NCBI GenBank assembly: GCA_964615735.1
Contig: CAZTQU010000001.1
Location: forward strand, 1 to 56,032
Length of the DNA stretch: 56,032 bases
Reading direction: 5' to 3'
Source: an uncultured Candidatus Saccharibacteria bacterium
Lineage (GTDB): Bacteria; Patescibacteriota; Minisyncoccia; Minisyncoccales; UBA1441
In this document: positions 17,424 to 56,032 of the stretch, piece by piece
Numbering within the stretch: position 1 is the stretch's first letter
Layout: every line of letters begins with the position of its first letter
Made by a program: the position numbers and the translations under genes
Notes under the pieces: model-generated
What the model was told of the DNA's origin: nothing
Databases searched by the model: none
Seen by the model: only the letters and a program-made list of their open reading frames with translations

Positions 17424-17735
17424 GCTTCGATGGAAAGGGAAGGAAAGATCCTCCGGTCAAGGTTTAGATCCTTGTAAAACCTCTAAAATCAGAAAAGTGC
17501 CAACTTTTCAGCGGACCGTGAGCCCGCTCTCGCTTACGCTTAATAAAAGCCAGTAAGCATTCCCGCCGCTCATTCTCGATAGGCGGACCGGGGATTCAGA
17601 AATCGAGAAGTTCTTTCTTTTTTCGGTAATATCTATTTTCGTCTGATTCAAGGATATTACGTCACTAATCAGACTAGATCGGTAAACCGTCTTCCCCACC
17701 CTTTTCAGACGTGGGTTCAACTCCCGCCGTCTCCA
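17413..17735 (+). ncRNA. ssrA: tmRNA (SsrA); tag reading frame 17499-17540 encodes ANFSADREPALAYA, followed by TAA TAA
   Basis: The 5' GGGGACG pairs with the 3' CGTCTCC, including a G3:U70 wobble. There is a T-arm (GTGGG TTCAACT CCCGC) and a discriminator A, but CCA is not fully encoded. The resume codon is GCC and the tag ends -LAYA. The gene lies immediately after smpB. Confidence 0.9.
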
Positions 17736-17795
17736 CTAACTACAATCCTTGTCATTTTTGATGACTACACAATAATTCAAGCCAATGCAAAAACG

Positions 17796-17821
17796 AGCTT
17801 TAAAAAGGTGCGCTTAAAGCT
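17796..17821 (+). terminator. AT-rich hairpin downstream of ssrA (possible terminator)
   Basis: AGCTTTAA (17796-17803), a 10-nt loop, TTAAAGCT (17814-17821), then TGTTATGTGT. Confidence 0.3.
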
Positions 17822-17878
17822 TGTTATGTGTAATTGGCAAAAGGCAATTTTTATGTGCTTCATTTAAAATTTAACCAC

Positions 17879-18124
17879 ATGACAAAACAAAAATTAATTC
17901 ATGAAACCATTGGTTGGTATGGAACATGTGCCATAGTGATTGCTTATGCCTTAGTAAGCTTTAATCTTTTATCGACATCATCTTTCATTTACCAGATTAT
18001 GAATGGGACGGGCGCTCTGGGTATTGTCTATATCTCGTTCAAAAAGAAAGCCTACCAACCAGGAGTTTTAAATGTTATTTGGGCAATCATCGCTTTCATT
18101 GCAATCATCCGAATCTTAATGTAG
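17879..18124 (+). CDS. Small 3-TM membrane protein (CBU_0592-like/SemiSWEET-sized)
   Basis: 81 aa from ATG 17879: IGWYGTCAIVIAYALVSF...YQIMNGTGALGIVYISF...VLNVIWAIIAFIAIIRI. The region is low in GC. Confidence 0.5.
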   Translation: MTKQKLIHETIGWYGTCAIVIAYALVSFNLLSTSSFIYQIMNGTGALGIVYISFKKKAYQPGVLNVIWAIIAFIAIIRILM

Positions 18125-18221
18125 TCGCTTTTTACTTAATCTGTATGACCCGTTTACCTTTACCGCTTTCTTTCTTGCAAGCGGCAAGTGGTTTTGATAG
18201 CGCATCTAATCTACCTATTTT

Positions 18222-18716
18222 ATGGAGGAACAAAAACCATTAGAAATTATCAGGCAATTTGCTGAAAAACTACCTAAGTTTTCAGACGGGAGAATTAATT
18301 ATTCAAATTCCAATATCGCCCCTGTTATAACTATTTTTGTAAAATTCAAAAAGAAAATCCTTCTTTTGAAAAGAAGCACTAAAGTTAGAGCGTATCAAAA
18401 TAAATGGAATACGGTTGCCGGTTACCTAGACGAATTAAAGCCCATTTCTAAAAAAGCTCTCGAGGAAGTTAGAGAAGAATTGGGTATTGATAAAGATAAC
18501 ATTTCTATAATCTATTTTGGAAAATCCTATAAATTCACAGACAGCAAAATAAACAAGACCTGGATTATCTACCCGATCCTGATAGAGTTGAAAACGAAAC
18601 CCGAAATCAAATTAGATTGGGAACACACCGAATATAAATGGATTATGCCGGAAGAATTAAAACATTTTGATACTTTTCCCAAACTTGAAGAAAGCCTGAA
18701 AAGGGTGTTTGAATAA
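18222..18716 (+). CDS. NUDIX hydrolase
   Basis: Nudix box AGYLDELKPISKKALEEVREELGI (GX5EX7REUXEEXGU). Confidence 0.8.
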   Translation: MEEQKPLEIIRQFAEKLPKFSDGRINYSNSNIAPVITIFVKFKKKILLLKRSTKVRAYQNKWNTVAGYLDELKPISKKALEEVREELGIDKDNISIIYFGKSYKFTDSKINKTWIIYPILIELKTKPEIKLDWEHTEYKWIMPEELKHFDTFPKLEESLKRVFE

Positions 18717-18828
18717 CTTTTGAATAGCTATTTTCGCTCAAAATTTATATAACTTATAATTTGACGAAATATTATGACAGATGAATTAATTGATATTTAT
18801 GACGAAAATAATAATATTAACAATCAAT

Positions 18829-19128
18829 ATGAATAAAGCTAAATTAAATTATCTTGTTGATGCTTCGATAGCGGTTTTGTTTACCGTTGTGTCAATAACA
18901 GGATTAATCCTTTTTTTCTTTTTGCCTAGTGGCTTAAAACAGGGAGGATCTCGAGAAGTCTTAGGCATCGCCAAGCAAGTTTGGACTCAGATTCATGATT
19001 GGTCAGGAATCATTTTAGTAGCTTTTATATCAGCACATTTTATTCTTCATTGGCAATGGATAGTCTATGCGACTAAAAATACATTCCAGAAAAAACAAAT
19101 TTACTCAGAGATTAAAAACAATAAATAG
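18829..19128 (+). CDS. DUF4405-like small membrane protein
   Basis: MNKAKLNYLVDASIAVLF...IHDWSGIILVAFISAHFILHWQWI shows the conserved His pattern of the family. I chose the internal ATG as start; the track's TTG at 18790 is an alternative. Confidence 0.6.
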   Translation: MNKAKLNYLVDASIAVLFTVVSITGLILFFFLPSGLKQGGSREVLGIAKQVWTQIHDWSGIILVAFISAHFILHWQWIVYATKNTFQKKQIYSEIKNNK

Positions 19129-19209
19129 GAAGCACCATTCATAATTGTAATAATTCAATCACCGTGGTAATATACGATATCTCATAGGCACCATTTTAAA
19201 TTCTTACTT

Positions 19210-19710
19210 ATCCAAAAAACACCCGTTAATAATCAAATAAAAGCGCTAAAATTAAACGTCGTCGGCCCGGACGGAAAGTCTTTGGGAATAATGAACCGGG
19301 AAGAAGCTTTGGAAAAAGCTCGGGAATTAAGCCTGGATTTAATTTTAGTTTCCGCCAAAGCCAATCCCCCGGTGGCTAAGATTACCGAAGCCGGAAAATA
19401 TCTTTACCAGCAGCAAAAGAAACATCGGGTAAAAAAGAGCGGAGGAGCAGTGAAAGTGATAACCATTAAATTTAACACTTCTCCCCACGACCTGGAGACC
19501 AAACTAAAGCAAACTAAAACCTTTTTGGAAAAGGGTCACCAAGTCCAAGTAACTATGCGTCTGCGGGGAAGAGAAAACGCCCTTCGCTTCCAGGCCAAAG
19601 AAAAACTGACCAATTTCATCGAAGCTATCAAGAAAGAGGCTCCAGTTAAAGTTCAGGATCAGACGTCATCCAGGTCCCGTCAATTTAAAGTTAATATCAC
19701 CAAACAATGA
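19210..19710 (+). CDS. infC: Translation initiation factor IF-3; the 5' boundary is uncertain and the start is non-canonical (ATC 19210, or ATA at 19177 or 19237)
   Basis: Conserved IF3 N-domain residues PVNNQIKALKLNVVGPDGKSLGIMNREEAL are encoded from 19222. That is upstream of the first canonical start (TTG 19282). The frame is open from 19171 and contains no ATG, GTG or TTG before 19282. Confidence 0.85.
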   Translation: MQKTPVNNQIKALKLNVVGPDGKSLGIMNREEALEKARELSLDLILVSAKANPPVAKITEAGKYLYQQQKKHRVKKSGGAVKVITIKFNTSPHDLETKLKQTKTFLEKGHQVQVTMRLRGRENALRFQAKEKLTNFIEAIKKEAPVKVQDQTSSRSRQFKVNITKQ

Positions 19711-19904
19711 AGGGAAAAGCAAAAACCAGAAAATCTTTAAGTAAGAGATTTAAAATTACCCCTACCGGGAAAGTCCTCCGCCGCTTAAGCGGCATGGATC
19801 ATCTTCGAAAGGGCAAATCGGAACGAACTAAACAGAGGCAGAAGAAATGGGTGGTTGTTTCTAAGCCTCTGGCTAAAAAAATTAAATCAGAATTAAAATA
19901 TTAA
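19707..19904 (+). CDS. rpmI: 50S ribosomal protein L35
   Basis: 65 aa, basic: KTRKSLSKRFKITPTGKVLRR...H. ATGA overlap with infC. Confidence 0.95.
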   Translation: MKGKAKTRKSLSKRFKITPTGKVLRRLSGMDHLRKGKSERTKQRQKKWVVVSKPLAKKIKSELKY

Positions 19905-20251
19905 TGACGAGAGTAAAGCGAGGGACAGTTGCTCATAAGAGACGAAAGAACACTCTTCAGGAAACAAAGGGCTTCAAATGGGATAGAAAGTCAAAGTACC
20001 GCTCTGCTAAGGACGCCCTGCGGCATGCTTGGGTTCATGCTTACCGCGACCGGCGAAAGAAAAAGCGGGATTTTAGAGGCCTGTGGCAAATTAAAATCAA
20101 CGCCGCGGCCAGAGAAAATGGATTATCCTATTCCCGTTTCATTCACCAACTGAAAGAAAAAGACATTCAGATCGACCGGAAGATTCTTGCTCAATTAGCG
20201 GAAAATCACCCCTCTGTTTTCAAGCAAATTGTAGAAGAAGTAAAAGAATAA
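19904..20251 (+). CDS. rplT: 50S ribosomal protein L20
   Basis: MTRVKRGTVAHKRRKN...AYRDRRKKKRDFR.LWI.RINAAAR pattern. Confidence 0.95.
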   Translation: MTRVKRGTVAHKRRKNTLQETKGFKWDRKSKYRSAKDALRHAWVHAYRDRRKKKRDFRGLWQIKINAAARENGLSYSRFIHQLKEKDIQIDRKILAQLAENHPSVFKQIVEEVKE

Positions 20252-34962: not shown

Positions 34963-36057
34963 TTGAATCATATGGAAGAAATGCCAATTAAAACCTTATC
35001 CTCTCTGATTAAAGAAAAGGAAAATATTTTTCTTTTCCCCGCCTTGAGTAATCGAGGAGATAGTCTCTTAGCCGGTTTGGCCCTCTTCTATAGTTTAAAA
35101 AATTCTGGGCAAAAAGCAAATCTTATTCTCGGTTCTCTCCCTTGGGAGGCTCAGCCTTTTATCAGCGAGGACTTTTCTTTCCAGCCCAAGATTATTATCC
35201 GGCCGCCGGCTTCTCTTCAAATTAAACAACTGCGCTACGAAAAGGAAAAAGAGCAGCTTATCCTTTATCTTGATGCTCAGGATAAAGCCCTTGACCGCCG
35301 GGACTTTGATCTCCTGCTTTCTCCTCAACCCCAGCCCGATCTTCTTATCACCTTGGGAGTGCAAAAATGGGAAGAGATTGTTCATCCTCTCTTTCGAAAT
35401 TTTCAGGATTCTCTGCCCATTATCAATATTGACTGTCATGCCTCTAATCAATATTTTGGCCGTCTCAACTTAGTTAATCCGCAGACTACCTCCTTAAGTC
35501 AATGGCTAACTGTTATTCTGCGTCAGCTTCAAGAAGAGGAAATTGATGCCCGGGCGGCTGGCTATCTGCTGCAGGGTCTTAAACTTCTCCCCCCGGAAAA
35601 ACAGACCAAAGAATCATTGGCCCAGATGCATTATCTTATGGGGAAGGGAGCTTTAGAATTTAATCCCCCCTCTTCTTTTCTCACCTCTCAAGCCAAGATT
35701 GATTTCCTGCAGCAAGCAATAAAGAAAATACAAGTTTTTTCAAAACCAAAAATTGCTTTTCTTCCCTTGGAAACAGGCGTTTGGCGTTCTCTTTCTCCCC
35801 CCTATCTGTCTTCTCTCCTTCAGGAATTGAAATCCGGGCTCTTCCAGTTTAAAAATATTCTCCTTCTTTGGAAAGTAGATCACCAAACTATTCAGGGAAT
35901 AGTTTCTCTCCAGAATCAAGAAAAGCAAAATCAGGTGCTGAAAGTTTTCTCCGGGAAAGAAAAAGGGAAAATTGGAATTTTCCGAGCGGGAAAGACAAAT
36001 CTTTCCTCGGTCAAGGATAGAATTTGGCCGCTCTTAACAGAAAAAAACAGCGATTAA
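34963..36057 (+). CDS. NrnA/DHH-family-like protein with degenerate catalytic motifs
   Basis: It is colinear with the DHH layout, but the motifs read ...ALSNRGDSLLAG..., ...LLITLGV... and IINIDCHASN (DHH becomes DCH). There is no GGGH in the C-terminal part. Confidence 0.4.
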   Translation: MNHMEEMPIKTLSSLIKEKENIFLFPALSNRGDSLLAGLALFYSLKNSGQKANLILGSLPWEAQPFISEDFSFQPKIIIRPPASLQIKQLRYEKEKEQLILYLDAQDKALDRRDFDLLLSPQPQPDLLITLGVQKWEEIVHPLFRNFQDSLPIINIDCHASNQYFGRLNLVNPQTTSLSQWLTVILRQLQEEEIDARAAGYLLQGLKLLPPEKQTKESLAQMHYLMGKGALEFNPPSSFLTSQAKIDFLQQAIKKIQVFSKPKIAFLPLETGVWRSLSPPYLSSLLQELKSGLFQFKNILLLWKVDHQTIQGIVSLQNQEKQNQVLKVFSGKEKGKIGIFRAGKTNLSSVKDRIWPLLTEKNSD

Positions 36058-37367
36058 CATCAAAAATAATGACCACTCTTGCTCACCAAGTACAAATTGA
36101 TCCGGCTGTCATTAAGGAGGTTCTTCCCCGGGTTCACCATATCCGGGATTATCAGAAAGCGCTGGAAGCCCATTTCTTGGGAGAAACTACCCGCTTAGTG
36201 GACATCATCTTAGCGGGAGCTATTCTCCTCCGCGCCTCCGACATTCATCTTGAGCCTCAACAAGAAAAAAGCGCCCGGCTGCGTATTAGAATCGACGGCG
36301 TTCTAAAAACAGTTTCTCTCCTCCCCATCCGTGTTTATGAACTTGCTCTTTCCCGAATTAAGCTGCTCTCCGGTCTTAAATTAAATATTACCCGCCGGGC
36401 CCAAGACGGACGCTTTACTATCTATTATCACCAAAGAGAAATTGAAGTCCGGACTTCTGTTCTCCCTTCAGAATTCGGAGAAACGATTGTTATGAGAATC
36501 TTGGACCCAGAATCGCTCCGGGATGTTGCCGCTCTTGGAATGCGGCCAGGGCTATTAAAGCTGATGAACCAAGAATTGGAGCGCCCCAATGGAATGATTC
36601 TCTTAACCGGGCCAACTGGCTCCGGAAAAACAACTACTCTTTATGCCTTCCTTAAAAAAATTGAAAATCCGGGGATAAAAATTATCACTATTGAAGATCC
36701 GATTGAATACCAGCTAGAAGGAATCTCTCAAACTCAGGTTGATCCCCAGCATGGTTATGATTTTGCCTCCGGCCTCTCCGCCATTGTTCGCCAAGACCCG
36801 GATGTCATTCTGGTGGGAGAAATCCGGGATGGGGATACCGCCCGCATTGCCATCCAGGCGGCAATGACCGGCCATTTAGTTTTTTCCACTCTCCATACCA
36901 ATGATGCCGCCGGGACAATTTCCCGCCTGGAAGCCCTGGGAGTGAGCAGCACGGATATTGCTCCCGCTCTTAATGTTGCCATCGCCCAGCGGCTTGTTCG
37001 TCGAGTCTGCCCTCACTGCTCTCATCTTTCTTCCCCAACTCCAGAGGAAAGGGAAGAGATAAAAAAGGCTTATGCTCAAATGCCAGCTTTAGTTTCCCTT
37101 CCGCCTTTCAAAGAGAAGATAAAGATTCTTCAAGCCAATCCGGCGGGTTGCTCCACCTGCAACTTTACTGGCTACCAAAATCGAATTGGCATTTTTGAGG
37201 CCTTCCGCGTCGATGACGAGATGGAAAATCTGATTCTGCGCTCCCCGTCTATTCCTAAGTTAAGGAACAAAGCTACGGAAAAAGGAATGCTTAGTCTCTA
37301 CCTAGACGGCATCCTGAAAGTGCTTAACCATCAGACTACCTTGGAAGAAGTCCATCGGATGACTTAA
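36024..37367 (+). CDS. pilB: GspE/PilB-family secretion/type IV pilus assembly ATPase (short N-terminus)
   Basis: Walker A LTGPTGSGKTTTL, Asp box, Walker B ILVGEIRD, His box, and tetracysteine CPHC...CSTC. The TTG start at 36024 has an AAGGA Shine-Dalgarno site; ATG 36069 is an alternative start. Confidence 0.85.
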   Translation: MAALNRKKQRLTSKIMTTLAHQVQIDPAVIKEVLPRVHHIRDYQKALEAHFLGETTRLVDIILAGAILLRASDIHLEPQQEKSARLRIRIDGVLKTVSLLPIRVYELALSRIKLLSGLKLNITRRAQDGRFTIYYHQREIEVRTSVLPSEFGETIVMRILDPESLRDVAALGMRPGLLKLMNQELERPNGMILLTGPTGSGKTTTLYAFLKKIENPGIKIITIEDPIEYQLEGISQTQVDPQHGYDFASGLSAIVRQDPDVILVGEIRDGDTARIAIQAAMTGHLVFSTLHTNDAAGTISRLEALGVSSTDIAPALNVAIAQRLVRRVCPHCSHLSSPTPEEREEIKKAYAQMPALVSLPPFKEKIKILQANPAGCSTCNFTGYQNRIGIFEAFRVDDEMENLILRSPSIPKLRNKATEKGMLSLYLDGILKVLNHQTTLEEVHRMT

Positions 37368-37370
37368 TCC

Positions 37371-38063
37371 ATGATGACTAAACTTTTCTGGTTCATTCTT
37401 GCTCTTTTCTCCGTTCCCAGTTTAGGCGGCTGTCAATCCCCATCCGCTAGCAACCAATTATTGATTGTGGAAATTCAGATCGCTGGTTCTCAATCTTCTC
37501 AGGATTATCTTCGGCTTTACAATCCCAGTAATCAGACAGTTGACCTCCGCCGCTTCCAGTTAAAAAAGAAAACTCAATCTGGGCAGGAATATTCTCTCTT
37601 CTCTTTTCCGGAAGGAAGCCAGATTGATCCCGGAGAAAGCCTTGTTTGGGCCAATGCTCAAGAAGGGTTTGCTGATTTTCTTTCTACTCCCTATCAAAGC
37701 CAAGCCACCCTGGCGGCCGATAACAGCGTTGCTCTTCTCGACCCCCAAAAAACAATCATCGATGCTCTCGCCTGGGGCAAAGGGGATGATCCCTTCCAGG
37801 AAGGAAGCCCCTTTCCGCAAAATCCTTCTGCTTACCAGCGCCTAAAAAGGAAACAGTTTCAGGAGGAGTATCTTGACAGCCATAATAACCAGGCTGACTT
37901 TTTTCTTGACGATTATCAGTTGACAGCTAACCAGCAACCAGATAATCTAGCTTTAGGCAGTCAAACCCCCAAACCACTTTCTTCACCGACCGTCCTTGCT
38001 TTCGGTTCAGGACTAGGGATCTTCAGTATTATCACTATCTTGCTTTTAAAAAGGAAATTATAA
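37371..38063 (+). CDS. Lamin-tail-domain (LTD) protein with a lipoprotein signal peptide and a C-terminal hydrophobic anchor
   Basis: Lipobox SLGGC, LTD signature LLIVEIQIAGSQSSQDYLRLYNPSNQTVDL, and C-terminal VLAFGSGLGIFSIITILLLKRKL. Confidence 0.7.
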   Translation: MMTKLFWFILALFSVPSLGGCQSPSASNQLLIVEIQIAGSQSSQDYLRLYNPSNQTVDLRRFQLKKKTQSGQEYSLFSFPEGSQIDPGESLVWANAQEGFADFLSTPYQSQATLAADNSVALLDPQKTIIDALAWGKGDDPFQEGSPFPQNPSAYQRLKRKQFQEEYLDSHNNQADFFLDDYQLTANQQPDNLALGSQTPKPLSSPTVLAFGSGLGIFSIITILLLKRKL

Positions 38064-45135: not shown

Positions 45136-45335
45136 GATTTTTTCTTCAGCTTTCGTTTTTTTATCTTAGCATAATTTATTTTCTAAGGGAAAGGGATGGA
45201 GAATGCTTTGTAAACTCGCCTCCTTTTTCCACCTGTCAATTCTTAGTGGATAAAAAGTGAGTAAAGACGATGGCCAGCTAAAGATTGACCTTTTGCCTTT
45301 GCCCTGTTATCCTGTTAGTCAATCTCTTGAGAATA
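45136..45335. promoter_or_regulatory. dnaA/rnpA divergent intergenic region; candidate oriC/dnaA-promoter segment with DnaA-box-like 9-mers
   Basis: AGTGGATAA at 45245-45253 is the reverse complement of TTATCCACT, an 8/9 match to TTATCCACA. TTTTCCACC lies at 45225-45233. The position between dnaA and rnpA is the classic origin context. Confidence 0.4.
45285..45313 (+). promoter_or_regulatory. Putative rnpA-yidC-jag promoter TTGACC-N17-TATCCT
   Basis: TTGACC lies at 45285-45290, followed by a 17-nt spacer and TATCCT at 45308-45313. The architecture matches the promoter at 2402-2430. Confidence 0.4.
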
Positions 45336-46869: not shown

Positions 46870-48465
46870 TTATATTTCTCCGGCTGGGACGATAGGAATA
46901 ATAGCAATAGAGTGAATGGCAGTGGAGAGGAGGGACTCGGTGCTGCTGAGCACATATTCGCTTTTTAGATCCGCGGGAGAATCGGTGAAAACCTGGCATC
47001 GGCCGTCAAAATCTTCAGCATCAGTCATCACCGCCCAGAAGCTTCCCTCGATTCTAACGGAATAAATTTTCTCCTCAATTTCGTGCCAAGGATAATCAAA
47101 GGTTTCATGCCAGATGGTATTGCCAATTTCCGAAGCAGAAATAGTGTGGCAATGGCCTTCAAAATTGGGCTTTTCGCAAAAAGTTACCGAGCCCTGTAAG
47201 TCATCCTCGTAATTTAGATAGAGGTTAAAGATATCAACGCTCCTCACTCGGTCAATGGGTTCGACAATGGGTTGGAGATCAATATCACTCAAAGTGGGAA
47301 CTAGGCGGTTGCGAATATTATTGGTGCCTAACCCGCTTGGATAGACGATACCGCATCTTCCTTCGCCGTTGGTTGAAGTGTGGAGTATTGTTCCCCAGCA
47401 GTGGTCGGGGAGATGTGGAAGGCCAAACAAAGATACGACATCATCAAGGTTGGCGAAAGAAAGGTCGCCGAACCCAGGGGTTGGGCCGCCGACGCCGGTG
47501 GTAAAAGAAAGGTCGCCGAGATCGAAGTCCCCGAAATCAAAGTCCCCGAAATAAAATAGGCCGGGATCAACATCCCCGAAGGAAAAGTCATCGGCTAAGC
47601 CAATAGCGACTTGTTGACTCCAATCCTCGTAGGTGTAGTGAAGATACAGGGACCGCGTCCGGTCGTTAAAGTTTTCTAGATCAGTAATAGGACTATTTAA
47701 GACAACGGGCAGATTTTTTGGGAAATCTTGGAAGGTCTCCTCGGTATACATTCCTCCTTCATGCGGGAAAAGGTAAATACCATATTCATGATTATCAAAG
47801 TAGAGAGAGCGAGGAGAAAAACTTAAGCCGAGGATGGGACGACTTTCGCCAGCAGCCGGACGGAAGAGAAGGGGGTTTTCCAGCTTTACAAAGCTTTCTT
47901 GGTAATCTTTCTCGGGAAAAAGAAAAACCGTCTGCCATTCACTCCGCGGAGCTTCAATTTCAATTTCCTCGGCCTGAAAATCCTCTGGAAGCACGTTGGG
48001 AGTGTTCTCCTGAAAGCAATGCATTTCTTCTTCATCCGTTCCCCGTTGAGCATAAAGGCAAATTCCGTGAAGGGGAATAGGCTTGATTGGCTCCAGCCCT
48101 ACTAATTGAGGATTAATAGTTCTCAAAGTCATAAAGGCTCCGAGGACAATAAGAAGACCTGCTCCTCCCCCGATTATCCGGTGACGAGCAGCCTTGGCTT
48201 TATCTACGGAGCCAGCCGAGGTTAAATGTTGGATTCCTCCGACGATCAGAATAACGAAGGCGATCACCCCAACAATATCAACCACTAGATAATAAAGATA
48301 GGCGAGATATTGAGCCAGGGGGCTTTCACTCGTCGGGACGCTTTCTATGCCTGGGATTTTAGGGTAATTGAGTTCCAGCCGAGCGTGGCTTACCAAGGGG
48401 ACGGCTAGAAGACCCAGGAGGAGAAGAAAACTGAAAAATCGAAGAGCGTTTTTAGAAACTAACAT
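46870..48465 (-). CDS. T4SS-pilin (TrbC/VirB2-like) N-domain fused to a ~400-aa extracellular region with beta-gamma-crystallin-like motifs and FGD repeats
   Basis: The N-terminus has a signal peptide, a hydrophobic helix, SAGSVDKAKAARHRIIGG, a second helix, then LRTINPQLVG. This is paralogous to the 822-aa neighbour. The C-terminus has FCEKPNFEGHC...IYSVRIEGSFWAVMTDAEDFDGRC Greek-key-like motifs. Confidence 0.6.
   Translation of the reverse strand: MLVSKNALRFFSFLLLLGLLAVPLVSHARLELNYPKIPGIESVPTSESPLAQYLAYLYYLVVDIVGVIAFVILIVGGIQHLTSAGSVDKAKAARHRIIGGGAGLLIVLGAFMTLRTINPQLVGLEPIKPIPLHGICLYAQRGTDEEEMHCFQENTPNVLPEDFQAEEIEIEAPRSEWQTVFLFPEKDYQESFVKLENPLLFRPAAGESRPILGLSFSPRSLYFDNHEYGIYLFPHEGGMYTEETFQDFPKNLPVVLNSPITDLENFNDRTRSLYLHYTYEDWSQQVAIGLADDFSFGDVDPGLFYFGDFDFGDFDLGDLSFTTGVGGPTPGFGDLSFANLDDVVSLFGLPHLPDHCWGTILHTSTNGEGRCGIVYPSGLGTNNIRNRLVPTLSDIDLQPIVEPIDRVRSVDIFNLYLNYEDDLQGSVTFCEKPNFEGHCHTISASEIGNTIWHETFDYPWHEIEEKIYSVRIEGSFWAVMTDAEDFDGRCQVFTDSPADLKSEYVLSSTESLLSTAIHSIAIIPIVPAGEI
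47456..47553 (-). repeat. In-frame short tandem/dispersed repeats encoding (D/S)FGD(F/L) units
   Basis: Three consecutive 15-nt units lie at 47509-47553: aaggtcgccgagatc, gaagtccccgaaatc and aaagtccccgaaata. In addition, aaagaaaggtcgccga occurs at 47456 and again at 47504. Confidence 0.8.
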
Positions 48466-48514
48466 TTTTTTATTAATTGTTATTAATTATTATTTATTAT
48501 TTATTAATTACCAT

Positions 48515-50983
48515 TTATCCAGATTCTCTTCCTTCTTCAATAAAGAAAAAGTTTTGCATTAAATCTTTGATAGCATCGCGGCACTGAACGCTGGCCCGGT
48601 CCCGGCGGCAGGCTTCTTGTTCTTCAGCCGTTAAGTCGGGACTATTATAGGGGTAACAATCGTCAAATTCCGGGAGAATAATCAATTCTCGTAACTCCAT
48701 TCTCTCGAGAAGAGTGAGGCAATTGTTCAGATCAACAGCTGTCATTTCTCCTTCAGGAATATGACCAAAACCAGGAATTGCTTTATCAAATTTTGTTCTA
48801 GAATCAACTAATTGGCAAATCAATTCCCGGCGATCTTCGTCATCGGGCAGAAGGTTTTCTGCCTCGATAAGATCAATAACGCGGTCTGTTTTCGGCTTAA
48901 TCGCCTCCTCGTCTTCCTCAAACCATTTTTGAGTTTCCTTGCGCCGCTGAAAGATGGTCCTGATGGGGCAAGGGCTAATACTGCCTGGGCAGAGACAAGT
49001 GGAACAAGGGCACTGCGGGCAATTGCCACAATTATTACAACGACATCCGTGTTGCTCAAAGCAACCGGGACCACAACCAGCGGAGTCTTGGGTGACTTGG
49101 CAGCCATCACACCGACATCTTGGAGGAAGATGAAATAGTTTACACTGATTATCAGGATCATTTTTATCGTAGGAGGGACAGACAATTTCTGGAGTAGAGG
49201 TTTTAATGATAATAGCCAGCTCTTTAGTTAATTGAGGAATGTAATTTTCGGCATTGTCTATCATTTCTCCTAGAAAAATAGTCCCAATAGGAAATCCCTT
49301 TTCCGTCAGGGGGTCAATTACTCCTTCCTCGAGAAAGGATCGTGAGCGGAGTTGCTCGGCTTTTTTCGTGCCGACATCCGGGCAATAGAGAGTCAAAGCG
49401 TCTTGATCATAAAAGTCGTAGCACTGGCGCTCTTGGTCGGTGGCCTCGGCAATTTCTTCGCTTGGCGGCATGATTCTGCACATAACGCCCATTTGATCGG
49501 TAGGATCAATCTCATCTTTTCCTTCTTCATTATTAATAAGGAATTTTGAGCATTGGTAGGTGGAGAAAATCTGATCTTCCCAGGACCATTCTACTAATTT
49601 CCCCTTCTCAAGATCATCGAGATTACATTTTTCACAGAACAACTTTTTCCCATTCTCTTGGCAGTCTTGACAATTAAAGTCCCGACAATATTTAGAGATG
49701 CCTAATTGCTGTTCTTCGATACATTCTTCTCCCCACTGAGCGTCATTACTGTTGACACAAAACTTAATCTGGGTAGAAGGCTCTCCCCGGTTTTTTAGGT
49801 CGTACAAGGAAGAATGGCTGATAGTCGCCCGGTAGGGGCAGTAGTTTTTGTAAGTGTTTTCTGCCTTAACTAGGTAGGAAAGGTCGGTTGTTAAACTAGC
49901 GGAATAAGGAGGGAGAAAGTGATCAGTTAACCAGCGGATTTGGTTGACGACGGTTAAATCTTGATAGTGATCAACATCCACTTTTACTAATTCACTATCT
50001 TTTAAGCAGTCGTGTCCCTGAATAACTTGATTCATAAACAAGCCACAGCCTCCCTCTCGGAAAAGTTGTTTTCTAATTTGTATCATTCGGCCCCGGCCGG
50101 GGCAGGGGTCTCCACCGCAAGGAGCGCCGCAGGGACAGGTTCCAAATGGAATACAGGGGCAAGTTCCACAACCACAAACGCCACAGGCGCACTGGGCACT
50201 AAGCTGAGCTAATTCCTTGACCCGATCGCGAAGAAATTCTGATTTGGCCTGAATGGCTTGGTTAATTTTCTCTAGGCAATCTAAACGGTCCCGGTGAAGC
50301 GTTGGCTGAATGCCTGGCTGGTTGGGGTCGGCATCGATAAATTCTCCATCTTCGTCAAAGGCGTAACATTGATAGGCGATTTCTGCATCTTCCGGCTGAG
50401 CGTCTGGCCACTGTTCCGGAAATTCCTCGGTCATCTTTTGAGCGATGGTTTCCTTTTCCTCCTGACTGATAGCTGTTTGACTGTGGCAATCAACCAATTG
50501 GTTGCTTTCATTAAAACAGCTGATGTTTTTGGCTAAAATTCTCGTTTCCAACAAAGTCCCAAAAGGAATTTCTTGATAGACGAAAGGGACGACTTCTTGT
50601 TCTGAAGGAGGAGCAGAGGGAGAAGACGTTCCGGGAGCAACCTCTGCCTCCGGAATTCCCCCCAAAATTTGAGGGTTAATAGTCTGAAGAACGATATAAG
50701 AAGTGATGATTATAAGCAAGCTTCCGAAGCCAGCTATCATTTGCTGCCGGGCTCTCTTCATAGCGTCGACAGATCCAGTTGCCAGGAGATAACGCAGGCC
50801 GCCGTAAACTAAGGATAGAAAAGCTACCAGGCCGGCGATACGGATGGTCCACTTTACTAATCCGGAAACCCAAGAAGTAAGCGCCTCCCCTTTCCCGCTG
50901 GAACCAGCGGCAAAAGCAAAAGCGACCATGCTCAATAAAACGAGAAGGCTGATAAGAAAAAGAAATAATTTTTTCTTATCCAT
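48515..50983 (-). CDS. T4SS-pilin N-domain fused to a ~700-aa cysteine-rich extracellular region
   Basis: The N-terminus has a signal peptide, a helix, ATGSVDAMKRARQQMIAGFG, a second helix, then LQTINPQILGG. By hand count there are 49 Cys, and none in the first ~155 residues. Two dense blocks read CACGVCGCGTCPCIPFGTCPCGAPCGGDPC and CRCDGCQ...CRCNNCGNCPQCPCSTCLCPGSISPC. Confidence 0.6.
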   Translation of the reverse strand: MDKKKLFLFLISLLVLLSMVAFAFAAGSSGKGEALTSWVSGLVKWTIRIAGLVAFLSLVYGGLRYLLATGSVDAMKRARQQMIAGFGSLLIIITSYIVLQTINPQILGGIPEAEVAPGTSSPSAPPSEQEVVPFVYQEIPFGTLLETRILAKNISCFNESNQLVDCHSQTAISQEEKETIAQKMTEEFPEQWPDAQPEDAEIAYQCYAFDEDGEFIDADPNQPGIQPTLHRDRLDCLEKINQAIQAKSEFLRDRVKELAQLSAQCACGVCGCGTCPCIPFGTCPCGAPCGGDPCPGRGRMIQIRKQLFREGGCGLFMNQVIQGHDCLKDSELVKVDVDHYQDLTVVNQIRWLTDHFLPPYSASLTTDLSYLVKAENTYKNYCPYRATISHSSLYDLKNRGEPSTQIKFCVNSNDAQWGEECIEEQQLGISKYCRDFNCQDCQENGKKLFCEKCNLDDLEKGKLVEWSWEDQIFSTYQCSKFLINNEEGKDEIDPTDQMGVMCRIMPPSEEIAEATDQERQCYDFYDQDALTLYCPDVGTKKAEQLRSRSFLEEGVIDPLTEKGFPIGTIFLGEMIDNAENYIPQLTKELAIIIKTSTPEIVCPSYDKNDPDNQCKLFHLPPRCRCDGCQVTQDSAGCGPGCFEQHGCRCNNCGNCPQCPCSTCLCPGSISPCPIRTIFQRRKETQKWFEEDEEAIKPKTDRVIDLIEAENLLPDDEDRRELICQLVDSRTKFDKAIPGFGHIPEGEMTAVDLNNCLTLLERMELRELIILPEFDDCYPYNSPDLTAEEQEACRRDRASVQCRDAIKDLMQNFFFIEEGRESG

Positions 50984-51341
50984 TTTTCACTTCTAAATAA
51001 ACAGTCAAGATCCAGCTAAAAGCGACATCTCCGAAAATAGGGATCGATTCCACTAAAAATGGCAGGCCAGCCCTCTTTAATAGTTTCCAAATTACCTTGA
51101 CACTCTTGCCGCTGATAGTTCCCGAGCGGAGAAAAAGAGTCCAGGCCGAAAAAATGACCAAGCCCACGATATCAAGAATAGTAGAAATAAGGAGGCCGAC
51201 GGGGGCAGTAATAACACCGAGAATGAGCAAAAGACAAATTGAACCCCCTCCGAGGTCAAGCATTCCTCCAATAGTCATCATCAATAAAGCATCCGGAGCA
51301 AGAAAATTAGAACTTGCCTTAGAAGGAGCGCCCTCTTTCAT
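50976..51341 (-). CDS. Small polytopic membrane protein (operon member, unknown function)
   Basis: 121 aa with 3-4 hydrophobic helices. It overlaps both neighbouring genes, by 8 nt and 23 nt. Confidence 0.4.
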   Translation of the reverse strand: MKEGAPSKASSNFLAPDALLMMTIGGMLDLGGGSICLLLILGVITAPVGLLISTILDIVGLVIFSAWTLFLRSGTISGKSVKVIWKLLKRAGLPFLVESIPIFGDVAFSWILTVYLEVKNG

Positions 51342-53136
51342 CTTCTTTCTCTTTTAAGGCTTTTTTTGCTTTTTCAATCTTCAAAACTTCTTCCGGGGAG
51401 GTGGTAATAATCTGGTCTTCGGCGTAAGAAGCGACTACTTGGATAGCTACTCTTTTTACCCCGGCAAAAAAGATTCCCTCTCCTACCTGGGTCGAAAGCA
51501 GAAGGTCTCTTTCTCCCTGGGTAAGATTAAAAGTATCCTGGATAAATTCAATGGAAGCCGGAGACTGCTTCATTAATAATTGGAGGGAAGAGTTATTAAT
51601 AATCGGGCGTCCGTAGGCGGAATTCATAAAATCACTGACGTCTTGAGTAATGGTGGTCAATCCCAGCCAATACTTACGAGCGCGTTTGGCGATGGAGAAA
51701 AGAAAGGAAGCTCCTTCTTCCGTTTTCATAATCCACCAGGCCTCATCAATGGTAGCGATTCTTTTCTTCAGCTGGGAGCGAATAGTGTTCCAGATATAGT
51801 GGAGGATAACATACATTGCCATCGGTCTTAATTCGTCTTCCATGTCACGAATGCCGAAAACGACTAATTTACTATCCATTTTGATATTAGAATACTGGTT
51901 GAAGAAATTGGCGTAGCTGCCCTGAGTATATTTTCTCAGGCGGCGGACTAATGACTCTCCTCCCTCCATACTTTCCAAAACGGCCTCGAAATCACTCATC
52001 CGCGGCGGCTGGATTTGAGAAAAATCAGATTCTGGGGTGATGTCTTTGGCGGCATAGGTCTCGGTTAAGGCTTGATCAACGATGGAATCTTCTTCCGGAG
52101 TTAATCCGCCGAGCATGAGACGGAAAAGGCCAACAAGTTCAAGAATATTATTCCGGAGAACGGAAGCCGGCTCTTCGTCAGCTCGAGGAATTGGTAAGTC
52201 GAAAGGATTGAGATGATGAGGGGAAGAGAGACTGATTTTGAAGAAAGACCCTCCGACAGCTTCAGACAGAAATTTATACTCATTTTCCGGGTCAATGATA
52301 ATTACATCTACTCCCTCCATGAGATAACGGATGATTTCTAATTTGGCGAAGTAGCTTTTTCCTCCTCCGCTTTTTCCGAAGATAACTTCATTGGCGTTTT
52401 CCAAAGAGAAACGGTCAAAGAGAATGAGGGAATTATTATGCCGGTTAATGCCGTAGAGAATACCTTTGCTCGAGCTCAGATCAAAGGAGATGAAGGGGAA
52501 AACGCTGGAAAGAGGGGCCGTATTCATCAGAGTGTGGACCCAGAGCTGATCTAGGCCGTAAGGGGAATTACTGACAAATCCCTCTTTTTGTTGGAAAGCG
52601 GCTGGCTTCAGATATATAAGTCTTGACTCCAAGATGGCCCGGATATCGGTTTCTACCTCTTTTAACCCCTCTTTTTCCCGGGCATACAAAGTGAAGTAAA
52701 TACTTACCCGGAACATTCTTTCTTGAGCTGTCTTTAACTGATTTCGAAGTTGTTCGATGTCCTGGAAAGCGGTTTCCAGTTCTGGACTCCTGACCAGCCC
52801 TTTTTCTTCTCGGTCAAGAATCTCGGCTTGGATTTCGGTCGTTTTTTTCCGGAGCTGCTTGAGAATAGGGGCGGTATCTATGGGATGGAAAAAGAAAGAG
52901 ATGTCCAGGGTCTGGGGAAGGTTGACAATCGGCGCCAGCCAGCCGACACTGAGATAGCGGGGATAGGAGAAGACGAAGAAACTTTCTAAATACCGCTCTT
53001 CCATCATAATATAGTTGGCGGTGATCTCTACCGAGGAGGGAGCAACCAGATCCTGCTGGCTAACCAGCTGTTGCCGGCCGCCAGAGGCAGAAGAGGCAGT
53101 GGAAGAAGAAAAAAGTTGTCTCAATTTCCCCAGCAT
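51319..53136 (-). CDS. virB4: VirB4/TrbE/TraC-family type IV secretion ATPase
   Basis: Walker A VIFGKSGGGKSYF, Walker B/DEAW IATIDEAWWIMK, and an N-terminal domain LESFFVFSYPRYLSVGWLAPIV typical of Gram-positive-type VirB4. Confidence 0.85.
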   Translation of the reverse strand: MLGKLRQLFSSSTASSASGGRQQLVSQQDLVAPSSVEITANYIMMEERYLESFFVFSYPRYLSVGWLAPIVNLPQTLDISFFFHPIDTAPILKQLRKKTTEIQAEILDREEKGLVRSPELETAFQDIEQLRNQLKTAQERMFRVSIYFTLYAREKEGLKEVETDIRAILESRLIYLKPAAFQQKEGFVSNSPYGLDQLWVHTLMNTAPLSSVFPFISFDLSSSKGILYGINRHNNSLILFDRFSLENANEVIFGKSGGGKSYFAKLEIIRYLMEGVDVIIIDPENEYKFLSEAVGGSFFKISLSSPHHLNPFDLPIPRADEEPASVLRNNILELVGLFRLMLGGLTPEEDSIVDQALTETYAAKDITPESDFSQIQPPRMSDFEAVLESMEGGESLVRRLRKYTQGSYANFFNQYSNIKMDSKLVVFGIRDMEDELRPMAMYVILHYIWNTIRSQLKKRIATIDEAWWIMKTEEGASFLFSIAKRARKYWLGLTTITQDVSDFMNSAYGRPIINNSSLQLLMKQSPASIEFIQDTFNLTQGERDLLLSTQVGEGIFFAGVKRVAIQVVASYAEDQIITTSPEEVLKIEKAKKALKEKEDERGRSF

Positions 53137-53137
53137 A

Positions 53138-53782
53138 TTATTTGATTAATTCTGGCATAATAGAAGGATAGTAGCCAACCTCGGATGACTGGGGATGGTA
53201 AGTTGACCACAGAAGTTCAATTAATTCGGAAGAGGTCAGAGGAGCAGCCAGCAAACCGCATCGCCGCAAGCCGATAGCAGTAAATTCCATCCTTTGGTAA
53301 AGCTGGCTTCGGGCCCGGCGAAAAACAACTTCGCTCATGACCACTTCTTCTTTTTTATGGCGGAAAAGTTCTTTAATAGGAGCAGAAATTTCTAGCTCAG
53401 CCAGGGTATAGGGAAGAACAACAAAAAACCTTTTATTCATAATAGTCCCTTGCTGGATGAGGCGGGCGATAAACCGACGGTAATCAGCGGTTTGAATTTT
53501 TAGCAGTTTATCGGTCTGGTTTTTTTCAAGGTCTTTTAATTTATCCAAGTAACCGGTTAAATTTACTCGTCTCGACTGGATAATGATCTGGGTGGGAAAA
53601 TCTAAAGAGTTCAAAAAATTCTGGAACTGAAAGACGATCGCTTCCTGTTCGTCGGCTGATTTCAAAGCAAAGTTAAGGGAAGAAACCATCAGTACTCCCC
53701 GTAAAGCGTTGCTCTTTAAGATAATAACTCCTTCTCTTATCTCCTTGAAAGGAAGAAGATCTTGGGCGGAAGCAGCTGACAT
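53138..53782 (-). CDS. Hypothetical protein resembling the N-terminal (non-ATPase) domain of VirB4-like proteins
   Basis: DLLPFKEIREGVIILKSNALRGVLMVSSLNFALKSADEQEAIVFQFQNFLNSLDFPTQIIIQSRRVNL matches, by eye, the pattern at the start of Gram-positive VirB4 homologues. It ends 1 nt before the virB4 ATG. Confidence 0.4.
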   Translation of the reverse strand: MSAASAQDLLPFKEIREGVIILKSNALRGVLMVSSLNFALKSADEQEAIVFQFQNFLNSLDFPTQIIIQSRRVNLTGYLDKLKDLEKNQTDKLLKIQTADYRRFIARLIQQGTIMNKRFFVVLPYTLAELEISAPIKELFRHKKEEVVMSEVVFRRARSQLYQRMEFTAIGLRRCGLLAAPLTSSELIELLWSTYHPQSSEVGYYPSIMPELIK

Positions 53783-53785
53783 AAA

Positions 53786-54202
53786 TTAAATTCTTTTCGT
53801 CTCGATTTTTGTTTCGAGACGGCTTAACTGGCTACCAGAAGAAATTCCCAAAAGTTCTTTCTTTTTTTTCTCGATGAGCGGCGCTTGTTTCTTTTGGATA
53901 ACAACTTCTAAATTAGGGGTAATCGTTTTTTTCTGCCAGATATAACGTTTTGGGGCGACGAGAAATTTTCCTAAATGCTTGACAAGATCAAACAAAGAGC
54001 GCCCTCCCGGTTTGATAAAAACAAAAATAGCGCTGATTATTAGAGCTAAGACGACGACGACCCAGAAGACTGTTCGAGGGAGGAAAAAATAGAAAACAAA
54101 GACGAAAATTCCCTCTCCCACTAGCCAGAGGAGTTGCTTAAAAGTCAATGGTCCCACGAGGGTCGTTTCTCGTTCAATAAACTTAGGAACTAGGAACTGC
54201 AT
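53786..54202 (-). CDS. PrgI/VirB3-like small membrane protein
   Basis: MQFLVPKFIERETTLVGPLTFKQLLWLV, then two TM helices. It lies upstream of virB4. Confidence 0.55.
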   Translation of the reverse strand: MQFLVPKFIERETTLVGPLTFKQLLWLVGEGIFVFVFYFFLPRTVFWVVVVLALIISAIFVFIKPGGRSLFDLVKHLGKFLVAPKRYIWQKKTITPNLEVVIQKKQAPLIEKKKKELLGISSGSQLSRLETKIETKRI

Positions 54203-54237
54203 AACTATTGTTAAAAGGATTTACCAAGACTTATATT

Positions 54238-54612
54238 TTATTCAACGGGTTCTCCGTAGATATCTTTTAACTTTCCGGGAGAGGAGGGCTGCAAGTAGTT
54301 TAACTTCTTCAGGTTGCCCTGTAAAGGTTGAAAAATTAAGTTCTGCAGATCACCGTTTAATTTTTGGGCTAGTTCTTCAGAGAGAGCGTACTCTTGTTGG
54401 AGGCGGGCGGGAACTTGGCCAAGATTGAATAAGCCCAGGAGTACGTCTCCGACTATATTGCCCAGCTTGGCTACCGGCTGGTCTTCTAATCCGTACTGCT
54501 CGACTAATCCTTGAACTATCTTGGCCGTTTCTTCCGAAAAGATGGCTTCCTGGATATCCGGCGGAAGATTGGGATAAATTTTCCAAAACTGGTCAATGTC
54601 GCTTTGTTCCAT
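54238..54612 (-). CDS. Hypothetical soluble 124-aa protein, first gene of the T4SS-like operon
   Basis: It is a clean ORF directly downstream of the promoter-like boxes. I recognise no family. Confidence 0.45.
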   Translation of the reverse strand: MEQSDIDQFWKIYPNLPPDIQEAIFSEETAKIVQGLVEQYGLEDQPVAKLGNIVGDVLLGLFNLGQVPARLQQEYALSEELAQKLNGDLQNLIFQPLQGNLKKLNYLQPSSPGKLKDIYGEPVE

Positions 54613-54629
54613 AAATTATTCTTTTTATC

Positions 54630-54658
54630 ATTCTACTATCTTTGTTCCCTATTGCCAA
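54630..54658 (-). promoter_or_regulatory. Putative promoter of the T4SS-like operon (TTGGCA-N17-TAGAAT)
   Basis: The reverse strand reads TTGGCA (54658-54653), a 17-nt spacer, then TAGAAT (54635-54630), about 18 nt upstream of the ATG at 54612. Confidence 0.4.
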
Positions 54659-54664: not shown

Positions 54665-54702
54665 GTTGCTATTGACGAAATAGAGTTGCTATTGACGAAA
54701 TA
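54665..54702. repeat. Perfect 18-nt direct repeat GTTGCTATTGACGAAATA x2 with a 20-nt period, plus a degenerate third copy one period upstream
   Basis: The two perfect copies at 54665-54682 and 54685-54702 are identical. CTATTG recurs at 54649, 54669 and 54689. Confidence 0.9.
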
Positions 54703-54771: not shown

Positions 54772-56032
54772 ATGAAAGAAGAAGACAAGAAAGGCCAAGA
54801 AAAAACAGGAGGTTGGGGATTAACAATATTAGCTCTAGTTTTTCTGGGGGCGGCGATTTTCTTCTTTGTTAGTCGCTTTTCTTTCTGGGCTGGATTGCCA
54901 GCCCTCATCGGAGCCGTCGTGGCGCTCATTTTCGCCATTTGGCTGGAATGGGCTCCCAAGGATTTCATTCTTGGTATCAACCAAGAGGGCGACATAATGA
55001 TGGTCGTCCGCGCCGGGAAAGTTTGGAAGTTTTTCCTGCAGTGGCAAGGATGGCACTTTGCTACTCAAGGGGAAGTTCAACAAGGAGAGGCTCTCCGCCG
55101 CTGGGACGTTATCCTAGACAAGGAAGAAGTCAAAAGAAACTGGTTGAGAGAAATCTTGGGGGGATTAGTATTTGTCGGCATTCCCCCCTTCCAGCAGGTG
55201 TTAACTTACCGTTTTAAGTGGGCTCATCTGCACGAGGATGGGAGCGTCCACCACCACGAAAAAGTTCTGAACTATGCCTTCGCCAAGTGGGATATGTACG
55301 TAATCGAGATAAAGGGAATAGAGGACAAAAATGGGCTTCCTCTAGACATCACAATCCTACTTCCGATGCGCATCGTCAATCCCTACGAGGCCTTCTTTGT
55401 CGTCGGCCGCTGGCTAGTGATGGTAACTGGGCTTCTGCAGGTGCCGCTCCGCAGATTTATTGGTTCCTGCACCTATCAAGAGCTTTTAGCAATGCAGGGC
55501 GCTGATACTACCGACCCGGCTGTCAACCAGCTTGAAAGGCAGTTATGGGCCGAGGTGGAAGACGCTTTGGGTGAAGAACAAGAAAAGAGCGATTCCCAGC
55601 AGGCGGTGACTTGGGACGACGCAAAGATCCGGATTTTCGGAATTGAGATAGATAAACTCCGCGCCGGATTTAACAGCATCGACCCTCCTGAATCGTACCG
55701 CAAGTTAACGACGAAGCAATATGAAGCTTCGCAGGAAGCGGAAGCGGTAAAGATTAAAGGAGAGGCGGCTGGTTTGGCTACGGCTAAAAGGGTGACTATT
55801 GCTGTTATGGCCATCGCCCGGCAGTTAGCCGGCTATCAGCCCGAGCAAGAGCTTTCTCCTGACGAATGGCTGAAGGTCGGTAAGATGACTGACCAAGCTT
55901 ATCAGTACTGGCTGACAAGCCAGGGCCTGGAAAGTATCAAGTCCTCTGACAAGATTATTATTACCGGAGGAGGGCAGCAGGTCGGCGCCGATGTTGCCGG
56001 TCTTACCATTCAAGAAGCGGTAAGGCAGGAGA
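54772..56032 (+). CDS. SPFH/band-7 (prohibitin/flotillin-like) membrane protein, N-terminal 420 codons; it runs off the right edge and is absent from the ORF track
   Basis: My translation from ATG 54772 has no stop: MKEEDKKGQEKTGGWGLTILALVFLGAAIFFFV... (two TM helices), then ...LDITILLPMRIVNPYEAFFVV...IFGIEIDKLRAGFNSIDPPESYRKLTTKQYEASQEAEAVKIKGEAAG, an SPFH core followed by a coiled coil. Confidence 0.65.
   Translation, partial: MKEEDKKGQEKTGGWGLTILALVFLGAAIFFFVSRFSFWAGLPALIGAVVALIFAIWLEWAPKDFILGINQEGDIMMVVRAGKVWKFFLQWQGWHFATQGEVQQGEALRRWDVILDKEEVKRNWLREILGGLVFVGIPPFQQVLTYRFKWAHLHEDGSVHHHEKVLNYAFAKWDMYVIEIKGIEDKNGLPLDITILLPMRIVNPYEAFFVVGRWLVMVTGLLQVPLRRFIGSCTYQELLAMQGADTTDPAVNQLERQLWAEVEDALGEEQEKSDSQQAVTWDDAKIRIFGIEIDKLRAGFNSIDPPESYRKLTTKQYEASQEAEAVKIKGEAAGLATAKRVTIAVMAIARQLAGYQPEQELSPDEWLKVGKMTDQAYQYWLTSQGLESIKSSDKIIITGGGQQVGADVAGLTIQEAVRQE

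Follow-up and report, generated by a model that had tools for sequence, protein, structure and literature searches.

A probable Patescibacteria-type chromosomal type IV secretion system with large pilin-domain fusions, encoded near dnaA in a Nealsonbacteria-like genome

Type IV secretion systems (T4SSs) of the Patescibacteria have been surveyed in 3,035 genomes (Quinonero-Coronel et al. 2025, PMC12102498). The survey placed 2,425 Patescibacteria VirB4s in a monophyletic clade nested in the mating-pair formation class FATA (MPF-FATA), with TrsD as the commonest accessory protein, with PrgI/VirB3, VirB6 and arrays of VirB2-like pilins near virB4, and with relaxases nearly absent. M23/LysM "VirB1" proteins were tied to virB4 specifically in Paceibacteria, and proximity of the T4SS to the origin was noted in Paceibacteria and Microgenomatia (PMC12102498). 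Transposon sequencing showed that an orthologous cluster, pilins included, is essential to Southlakia's epibiotic growth (Wang et al. 2023, PMC10633639). For this very large, mostly uncultured radiation, few machines are known on which epibiotic life depends, and the Patescibacteria T4SS is one of them. In a 2025 review, these systems appear as the newest additions to the T4SS superfamily (PMC12857230), and a 2024 perspective called their role completely unknown (PMC11665869). Here we analysed a stretch of 56,032 nt (hereafter the window, whose positions we use as coordinates) from contig CAZTQU010000001.1, deposited as an uncultured Candidatus Saccharibacteria bacterium. A first-pass annotation of this stretch had described a minus-strand T4SS-like operon at 46870-54612. 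We conclude that this operon very probably belongs to the known Patescibacteria-type chromosomal, non-conjugative T4SS, in a Paceibacteria/Nealsonbacteria-like genome.

In its genes, its lack of a relaxase and its origin-side position the locus matches the published clade (PMC12102498), and we thus regard it as the rediscovery of a known kind of system. The first-pass annotation had seen a composition unlike that of characterised T4SS classes, which overstates its novelty, the gene set being that of the surveyed clade. No new kind of system is at hand; the under-described part, and a modest one, is the lineage-wide fusion of pilin-like domains to ectodomains. The description of the operon itself proved accurate. 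Its seven co-directional open reading frames (ORFs) were recovered at the coordinates originally given, with tight junctions of +35, +3, +1, -23 (overlap), -8 (overlap) and +49 nt in transcription order, and a single promoter-like site was found ahead of the first gene (Table 1).

Table 1. Features of the T4SS operon and its flank, in window coordinates.
Feature	Position	Strand	Description	Basis
p124	54238..54612	-	124 aa, soluble, first operon gene	ORF
PrgI/VirB3-like small membrane protein	53786..54202	-	138 aa	Pfam PrgI
TrsD-like protein (VirB4 N-terminal domain, own gene)	53138..53782	-	214 aa	VirB4_plasma, CD1110, TrsD/TraD
VirB4 ATPase (linker and C-terminal motor domain)	51319..53136	-	605 aa	conju_CD1110, P-loop_TraG
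p121, small polytopic membrane protein	50976..51341	-	121 aa	ORF, conserved family
822-aa pilin fusion	48515..50983	-	T4SS_pilin N-domain and cysteine-rich ectodomain	
531-aa pilin fusion	46870..48465	-	T4SS_pilin N-domain and two predicted beta domains	
Sigma-70-like promoter candidate TTGGCA-17-TAGAAT	54658..54630	-	10/12 consensus matches; upstream of p124	
SPFH/Band-7 membrane protein, divergent	54772..56032 (exits window)	+		Pfam Band_7 1.1e-7

Profile searches upheld the PrgI, VirB4, VirB4 N-domain and pilin assignments made on first reading. PrgI matched Pfam PrgI at 33.1 bits (8.3e-8; gathering score 27) and TcpE at 6e-4. VirB4 matched the NCBIfam equivalog conju_CD1110 at 370 bits (2.3e-110; cutoff 325) and Pfam P-loop_TraG at 4e-28, and its translation contains the Walker A motif GKSGGGKS and the Walker B motif DEAW. 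The closest solved structure was 4AG5 (4e-43), the C-domain of a VirB4 from Thermoanaerobacter, a Firmicute. Judged by sequence, VirB4 is of monoderm (MPF-FATA) affinity. The TrsD-like protein matched the N-terminal part of VirB4 profiles only, namely NCBIfam VirB4_plasma (6e-10, profile 102-231) and CD1110 (positions 2-106), with a weak TrsD/TraD match (1.6e-3) and a precomputed assignment to PF26593, TraC-like. Its TAA stop is followed by 1 nt and then by the virB4 ATG in a different frame. All related loci for which upstream sequence exists keep the two genes apart, so that the split is ancestral. For this reason, and since the TrsD-like protein is already known as a separate component (PMC12102498), we rejected a frameshift or recoding artefact.

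Two further proteins of the operon recur as families. Members of the p121 family were present in 69/86 loci, nearly always -25 to +20 nt from the virB4 stop, the overlap being 23 nt in the window. The idea that p121 might be a cryptic pilin was ruled out by an hhalign probability of 0.9% against the pilin domain. The p124 family was present in 71/86 loci, and among the 63 loci of L007-L086 whose upstream sequence sufficed, 54 had the gene upstream of PrgI. Sequence searches of the PDB with the TrsD-like protein, PrgI, p124 and the pilin N-domain profile gave no meaningful match.

The system had been called minimal and stripped-down on first reading, with neither VirB6 nor a cell-wall hydrolase. 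This was an artefact of the window edge. Fifteen metagenome contigs encode the PrgI protein, of which six were examined, and we followed the source contig (L001) for ~10 kb past 56032. The rest of the SPFH gene was followed there by a TrbL-like gene, a RelE/ParE-like pair, ksgA and a gene for a LysM and Peptidase_M23 protein. The TrbL/VirB6-like gene (L001 5836-8055) lies ~1.4 kb past the window end, is co-directional with the operon and encodes a 739-aa polytopic protein with a precomputed match to PF19590, TrbL_3. In its family, five of 32 members match PF04610 TrbL/VirB6 (best 3.5e-10) and two match TrbL_4. The hydrolase gene is a further 2.5 kb out (M23 2.8e-29, LysM 2.2e-21). As both genes stand just past 56032, and in conserved synteny, the lack of VirB6 and of a hydrolase holds inside the window only. 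Inspection of this flank had two outcomes: a VirB6/TrbL-like gene was present, and VirD4, relaxase and integrase genes were not found within 10 kb. The SPFH gene, complete on L001 at 438 aa, separates the operon from the TrbL-like gene. An SPFH gene occupies this position in 11/44 related loci, and the protein is probably not a core part of the module. Immediately upstream of the TrbL-like gene, ~3.7 kb past the window end, we noticed a pair of genes for proteins of 74 and 82 aa (L001 5279-5748), the 82-aa protein weakly resembling RelE/ParE/HigB toxins.

To place the locus among its relatives, a VirB4 scan with one genome per GTDB species yielded 80 loci of 60-91% identity (L007-L086). Their ORFs were mapped by local phmmer/hmmsearch, and the counts use loci with enough flanking sequence. 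Labels of the 80 relatives were mostly of Patescibacteria type (Nealsonbacteria, Parcubacteria, Paceibacterota or 'Saccharibacteria'), some reading only 'bacterium' and two reading otherwise (Pseudomonadota and Humimicrobiaceae); one relative is a complete genome of 640 kb. The operon comparison across these genomes showed the same layout recurring in ~80 loci. Its upstream part runs M23(-), ksgA, TrbL-like, in some loci SPFH(-), p124, PrgI, TrsD-like and VirB4. After VirB4 come p121 where present, zero to four pilin-domain genes, jag(-), yidC(-), rnpA(-), dnaA and dnaN. PrgI was upstream of VirB4 in 71/71 loci and the TrbL-like gene in 34/44, while jag was downstream in 42/44 and dnaA in 38/44. 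The distance from VirB4 to jag varied from 1 nt to 9.5 kb, with a median of 4.4 kb, and constitutes a variable slot for pilin-domain genes.

In the window the same neighbourhood was apparent. With the end of the 531-aa gene at 46870 and that of jag at 46869, the spacer is zero, and dnaA ends at 45135, 1.7 kb from the operon; both distances agree with the first reading. GC content was 0.43-0.48 in the operon against about 0.44-0.46 in the window, close to the core as had been estimated from a short stretch of virB4, and the base composition of the operon is native. Pfam scans of the 41 other ORFs revealed chromosomal housekeeping genes only, including dnaA, dnaN, ruvC, smpB, rnpA, yidC, jag and a PilB-type ATPase. 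As the first reading had stated, genes for VirD4, a relaxase, VirB6, an integrase or partition were all missing from the window. The sign of the GC skew switches at about 46-47 kb. With the gene content, this points to a putative origin beside dnaA/rnpA. A DnaA-box scan found no consensus cluster near dnaA, 45136-45335 included, so that the origin is placed by gene content and skew switch only; no rpmH (L34) ORF was found between dnaA and rnpA (45136-45335). Transcription of the T4SS operon runs toward this putative origin and, given an origin at dnaA/rnpA, would meet replication head-on. The orientation of the operon relative to jag-yidC-rnpA-dnaA is shared by most related loci.

These observations bear on the possibility that the locus is an integrated conjugative element (ICE), or the remnant of one, with a relaxase, coupling protein and integrase outside the window. 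Such a view could draw on the VirB4 family, which otherwise sits on Gram-positive ICEs and plasmids (the CD1110 and Mycoplasma ICE models), and on the RelE/ParE-like toxin pair that adjoins the TrbL-like gene. Yet most related loci lack this pair, and no integrase, relaxase or type IV coupling protein (T4CP) was found in the 56-kb window and the 10 kb beyond. In about 80 species-level genomes the module sits at this chromosomal site with its genes in this order. No protein of the region was as conserved as VirB4, which surpassed DnaA (71% vs 63% identity at L009 and 63% vs 52% at L032). The recurrence of the layout and the conservation of VirB4 argue against an ICE, as do the native composition and the exclusively synonymous core polymorphism described below, and we consider this explanation hardly credible. 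The first-pass annotation had likewise denied a conjugative element, and it was right: DNA-transfer genes are missing from the window plus 10 kb, and the site is fixed in ~80 genomes. This T4SS is vertically inherited, chromosomal and located beside the origin.

Single-nucleotide polymorphisms (SNPs) among contigs of the same population differed between the core genes and the pilin fusions. The genes for p124, PrgI, the TrsD-like protein and VirB4 together carried 0 nonsynonymous and 14 synonymous SNPs, whereas the two pilin fusions carried 15 nonsynonymous and 14 synonymous (Fisher p = 6e-4 against the core). This shows that the core genes are under purifying selection and that the pilin fusions are variable. 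A decaying remnant was excluded by the strength of this selection. For the Nealsonbacteria-like lineage, the picture is that of a module fixed beside the origin, with an ATPase under stronger constraint than DnaA and a variable slot between virB4 and jag.

The two proteins encoded in that slot had been proposed to be pilin subunits with large ectodomains, and an N-terminal T4SS_pilin domain was indeed found in both the 531- and the 822-aa protein. Taken alone, the N-domain of the 531-aa protein scored 28.5 bits with PF18895 (T4SS_pilin) against a gathering score of 26.6. The 822-aa protein reached 19.1 bits (1.4e-3), under the gathering score on its own, and matched a local pilin-domain hidden Markov model (HMM) at 7e-29. 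Across the family, 42/43 N-domains match PF18895 and four also match TrbC/VirB2. A signal peptide and a hairpin of two hydrophobic helices matching the pilin profile are present. The small mature subunit of VirB2/TrbC pilins (about 70-130 aa) is not, the proteins being 531 and 822 aa long.

The 822-aa protein consists of a signal peptide, a VirB2-like helical hairpin (about 1-110) and a cysteine-rich, mostly helical ectodomain of ~700 aa. It had 20 homologues among 5.8 billion proteins, in which 26 cysteines are invariant and 20 more are conserved in at least 90% of sequences, with CxC/CxxC clusters. Comparison of its structural model with the PDB by Foldseek gave nothing below E = 3.7, and no solved fold was matched. 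The 531-aa protein had 17 homologues among the 5.8 billion. Its AlphaFold2 (AF2) model (pLDDT 72.4, pTM 0.62) predicts a signal-peptide helix, hairpin helices at 50-82 and 87-117, beta domains at about 130-290 and about 350-530, and an acidic disordered linker at 292-349. Foldseek aligned the beta domains with two-domain gamma/beta-crystallins at a probability of 1.0 (E 3e-6, target TM about 0.7), and at the sequence level Pfam Crystall was found at 1.6e-3, under its gathering score. We therefore predict from the model that this ectodomain is made of two beta/gamma-crystallin-like domains.

We asked how general this architecture is by collecting pilin-domain ORFs with a locally iterated N-domain HMM over the 80 related loci. 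The domain was N-terminal in the 122 complete ORFs obtained, whose median length was 486 aa; 104 of them were at least 300 aa long, 20 at least 800 aa, and the longest reached 1,477 aa. Small pilins of less than 150 aa occurred in 4/62 loci only. In 81 related fusions, Pfam called Peptidase_M23 in five ectodomains, LTD in three and Crystall in one; M23 or LTD domains fused to a pilin-like N-domain are found, for example, at 12268-13881 of L030 and from 14140 of L033. Collectively, these data show that the pilin ectodomains of this lineage are large, diverse and fast-changing. Outside the lineage, the 125-aa N-domain retrieved 10,904 clusters at E <= 1e-3 from 1.84 billion representative proteins, and only about 10 of the best 150 were shorter than 200 aa. 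So few short proteins among the best matches indicates that the fused architecture is common in nature. Some of these 150 carry two to six pilin-domain stretches in tandem, and in some public metagenome proteins (P0040, P0044, P0048, P0049, P0051 and others) the pilin-like hairpin domain is repeated three to six times within the polypeptide. In the literature we found no explicit description of the fused-pilin architecture. PF18895 matches were counted in the survey without remark on their size (PMC12102498), and one preprint reports that PF18895 dominates freshwater-specific structure clusters.

What we infer about assembly, surface display, substrate and transport direction would run as follows. 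PrgI and the TrsD-like protein would dock a VirB4 hexamer onto a membrane platform made of the VirB6-like protein and p121. The pilin-like proteins would enter the membrane via Sec as a two-helix hairpin with its basic loop in the cytoplasm. VirB4 might then extract them and assemble them at the machine. On this proposal, the C-terminal domains (crystallin-like and cysteine-rich here, M23 or LTD in relatives) would end up outside the cell because VirB4 extracts and assembles the proteins that carry them, and there they could touch the host envelope. The apparatus would thereby serve a host-dependent life through attachment and/or exchange of macromolecules, and not conjugation. The first-pass annotation had suggested a machine for host attachment or exchange, a speculation that earlier publications on these systems already contain. 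The T4SS is probably host-directed, and a conserved core with polymorphic ectodomains fits a role in host contact.

VirB4 may also have no part in this, the pilin-like proteins being ordinary surface proteins that are inserted by Sec and anchored in the membrane. A cleavable-looking signal peptide and two hydrophobic helices could suffice for that. In L049, L052, L054 and L063 the fusion genes are not beside VirB4 but lie upstream of the TrbL-like gene or on the opposite strand, and some loci have no fusion between VirB4 and jag. However, the N-domains form a conserved family of their own (PF18895, with TrbC/VirB2 matches in some members) rather than a generic anchor, and nearly all of them are encoded within the T4SS module. 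In addition, the pilin arrays in the T4SS cluster are essential in Southlakia (PMC10633639). We judge simple anchoring to be improbable.

Even if the pilin-like proteins are carried by the T4SS, they might be what is delivered. The apparatus would then export protein effectors into or onto the host, and the fused C-terminal domains would themselves be delivered or displayed effectors. The Peptidase_M23 and LTD domains in 5/81 and 3/81 related fusions are in line with this, as are the fast turnover of the ectodomains and their excess of nonsynonymous polymorphism, and effector delivery has been proposed in the literature for Saccharibacteria. Most ectodomains, however, have no recognisable enzymatic domain, both of those in the window look structural or adhesive rather than catalytic in their predicted folds, and the T4CP, which is the usual substrate receptor, is not in view. 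We hold export to be rather unlikely. The opposite direction, in which a ComB- or Ced-like machine would import host DNA, RNA or other macromolecules while the pilin fusions dock the host, has about the same modest chance. It is favoured by the published hypothesis for Patescibacteria (PMC12102498; PMC11665869), agrees with the absence of a coupling protein or relaxase in view, and finds an echo in VirB4, parts of which weakly match the models for CedB and CedD. These matches are so low (41 bits against a cutoff of 700 for CedB, 22 against 600 for CedD) that they argue against a specific Ced relationship, and no specific CedA/CedB or ComB homology was found. Moreover, the operon has no recognisable DNA-binding or nuclease component, and the sequence gives no sign of the direction of transport.

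A further, tentative possibility is that the VirB2-like hairpin of Paceibacteria has become a general T4SS-dependent carrier, which places interchangeable, fast-diversifying ectodomains such as those listed above on the surface or on a short filament. If so, these bacteria would have a polymorphic pilin-effector/adhesin system that sets host range, unlike any characterised T4SS pilus and unlike the arrays of small pilins known from Saccharibacteria. The pilin fusions are in any case concrete candidates for host-recognition determinants.

Several points weigh against our interpretation. Only two fusions are encoded in the window, where a small "major" pilin was not found, and a tightly packed filament of the VirB2 type fits poorly with a domain of 400-700 aa on each subunit. 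The AF2 model of the 822-aa protein is of low confidence (pLDDT 54.7). As to the module itself, p121 has no convincing Pfam family, with only weak DUF4112 matches in 4/30 members, and p124 has no match in Pfam, NCBIfam or the PDB. The TrbL-like orthologue of this very genome had no match in the Pfam copy used, and its identity comes from the precomputed match and from the members of its family. Finally, T4CP homologues are far from virB4 in many Patescibacteria (PMC12102498), and our search covered the window plus 10 kb, so that a VirD4-type coupling protein or a relaxase elsewhere in the genome is conceivable.

The region upstream of the operon contained further features. The sigma-70-like promoter candidate, read from sequence, was nearly identical in L007, the nearest other species. 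Between the operon and the SPFH gene lies an exact tandem duplication of the 18-mer GTTGCTATTGACGAAATA, with a 20-nt period (54665-54702). It is present in all five same-population contigs that span this intergenic region, and the closest other species has one diverged copy. The duplicated 18-mer may be a duplicated -35 element or an operator. A structured RNA was considered for the GC-richer right end of the window, where Rfam found none; this region is the SPFH gene.

Elsewhere in the window, we noticed a second surface-filament system, with a type IV pilus/T2SS-type ATPase (T2SSE, 2e-112) within 34963-38063 (+), flanked by a 364-aa protein without Pfam match and a Lamin-tail-domain protein. 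An isoleucyl-tRNA synthetase-like protein of 1,159 aa (11718-15197, -) has a His_Phos_1 domain (9e-33) at residues 481-636, an unusual insertion that splits the two halves of its class-I catalytic domain. The window also encodes a Tyr/Trp-class tRNA synthetase, several other aminoacyl-tRNA synthetases and a PBP1-type penicillin-binding protein with Transgly and Transpeptidase domains. At 17413-20000, Rfam identified a tmRNA gene directly after smpB, and a low-GC stretch (0.34-0.39) with NUDIX, DUF4405, infC and rplT genes follows it.

Compared with known systems, the order VirB3-like, TrsD-like, VirB4 mirrors TrsC-TrsD-TrsE of the trs operons. TrsD homology is shared with the MPF-FATA systems of pGO1/pSK41 (trs) and pIP501 (tra), and a Firmicute protein is the best solved relative of VirB4. 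Unlike these systems, the locus yielded no relaxase or T4CP and no recognised VirB8-like protein, is not mobile, and has pilin-like genes. With the Mycoplasma ICE, the N-domain of the 531-aa protein weakly matches the pilin-like Mbov_0395 model (2.8e-4), and VirB4 and the TrsD-like protein match the Mbov_0397 model (1e-82 and 6e-10). These matches are far under the equivalog cutoffs, and Mycoplasma ICEs are mobile, with small pilin-like proteins. The matches suggest that part of MPF-FATA may possess a native pilin-like subunit. The H. pylori ComB and archaeal Ced systems share a T4SS core without relaxase or coupling protein and have been proposed as functional analogues for Patescibacteria; ComB is a diderm set of VirB2-4 and VirB6-10, unlike the locus described here. 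VirB2/TraA pilins share the signal peptide and the two-helix hairpin with its basic loop. Classical pilins are about 70-130 aa long with nothing appended, whereas here a folded ectodomain of 400-700 aa follows the hairpin. The VirB2 paralogue arrays of Bartonella and Anaplasma share the feature of divergent copies beside the T4SS, thought to diversify the interaction with the host surface (PMC12102498). The closest relatives are the T4SSs of the Patescibacteria clade, such as those of Southlakia epibionticum (SEML1_0006-0019) and Nanosynbacter TM7x. They share the MPF-FATA-type VirB4, the TrsD-like protein, PrgI/VirB3, VirB6, PF18895 pilins beside virB4, the absence of a nearby relaxase and the dnaA/dnaN/rnpA/ksgA neighbourhood, and the association with an M23/LysM hydrolase is shared with Paceibacteria. 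The literature on these systems does not name p121 and p124. The pilins of Saccharibacteria come as arrays of four to six small secreted proteins, whereas here and in related Paceibacteria they are one to four large fusions.

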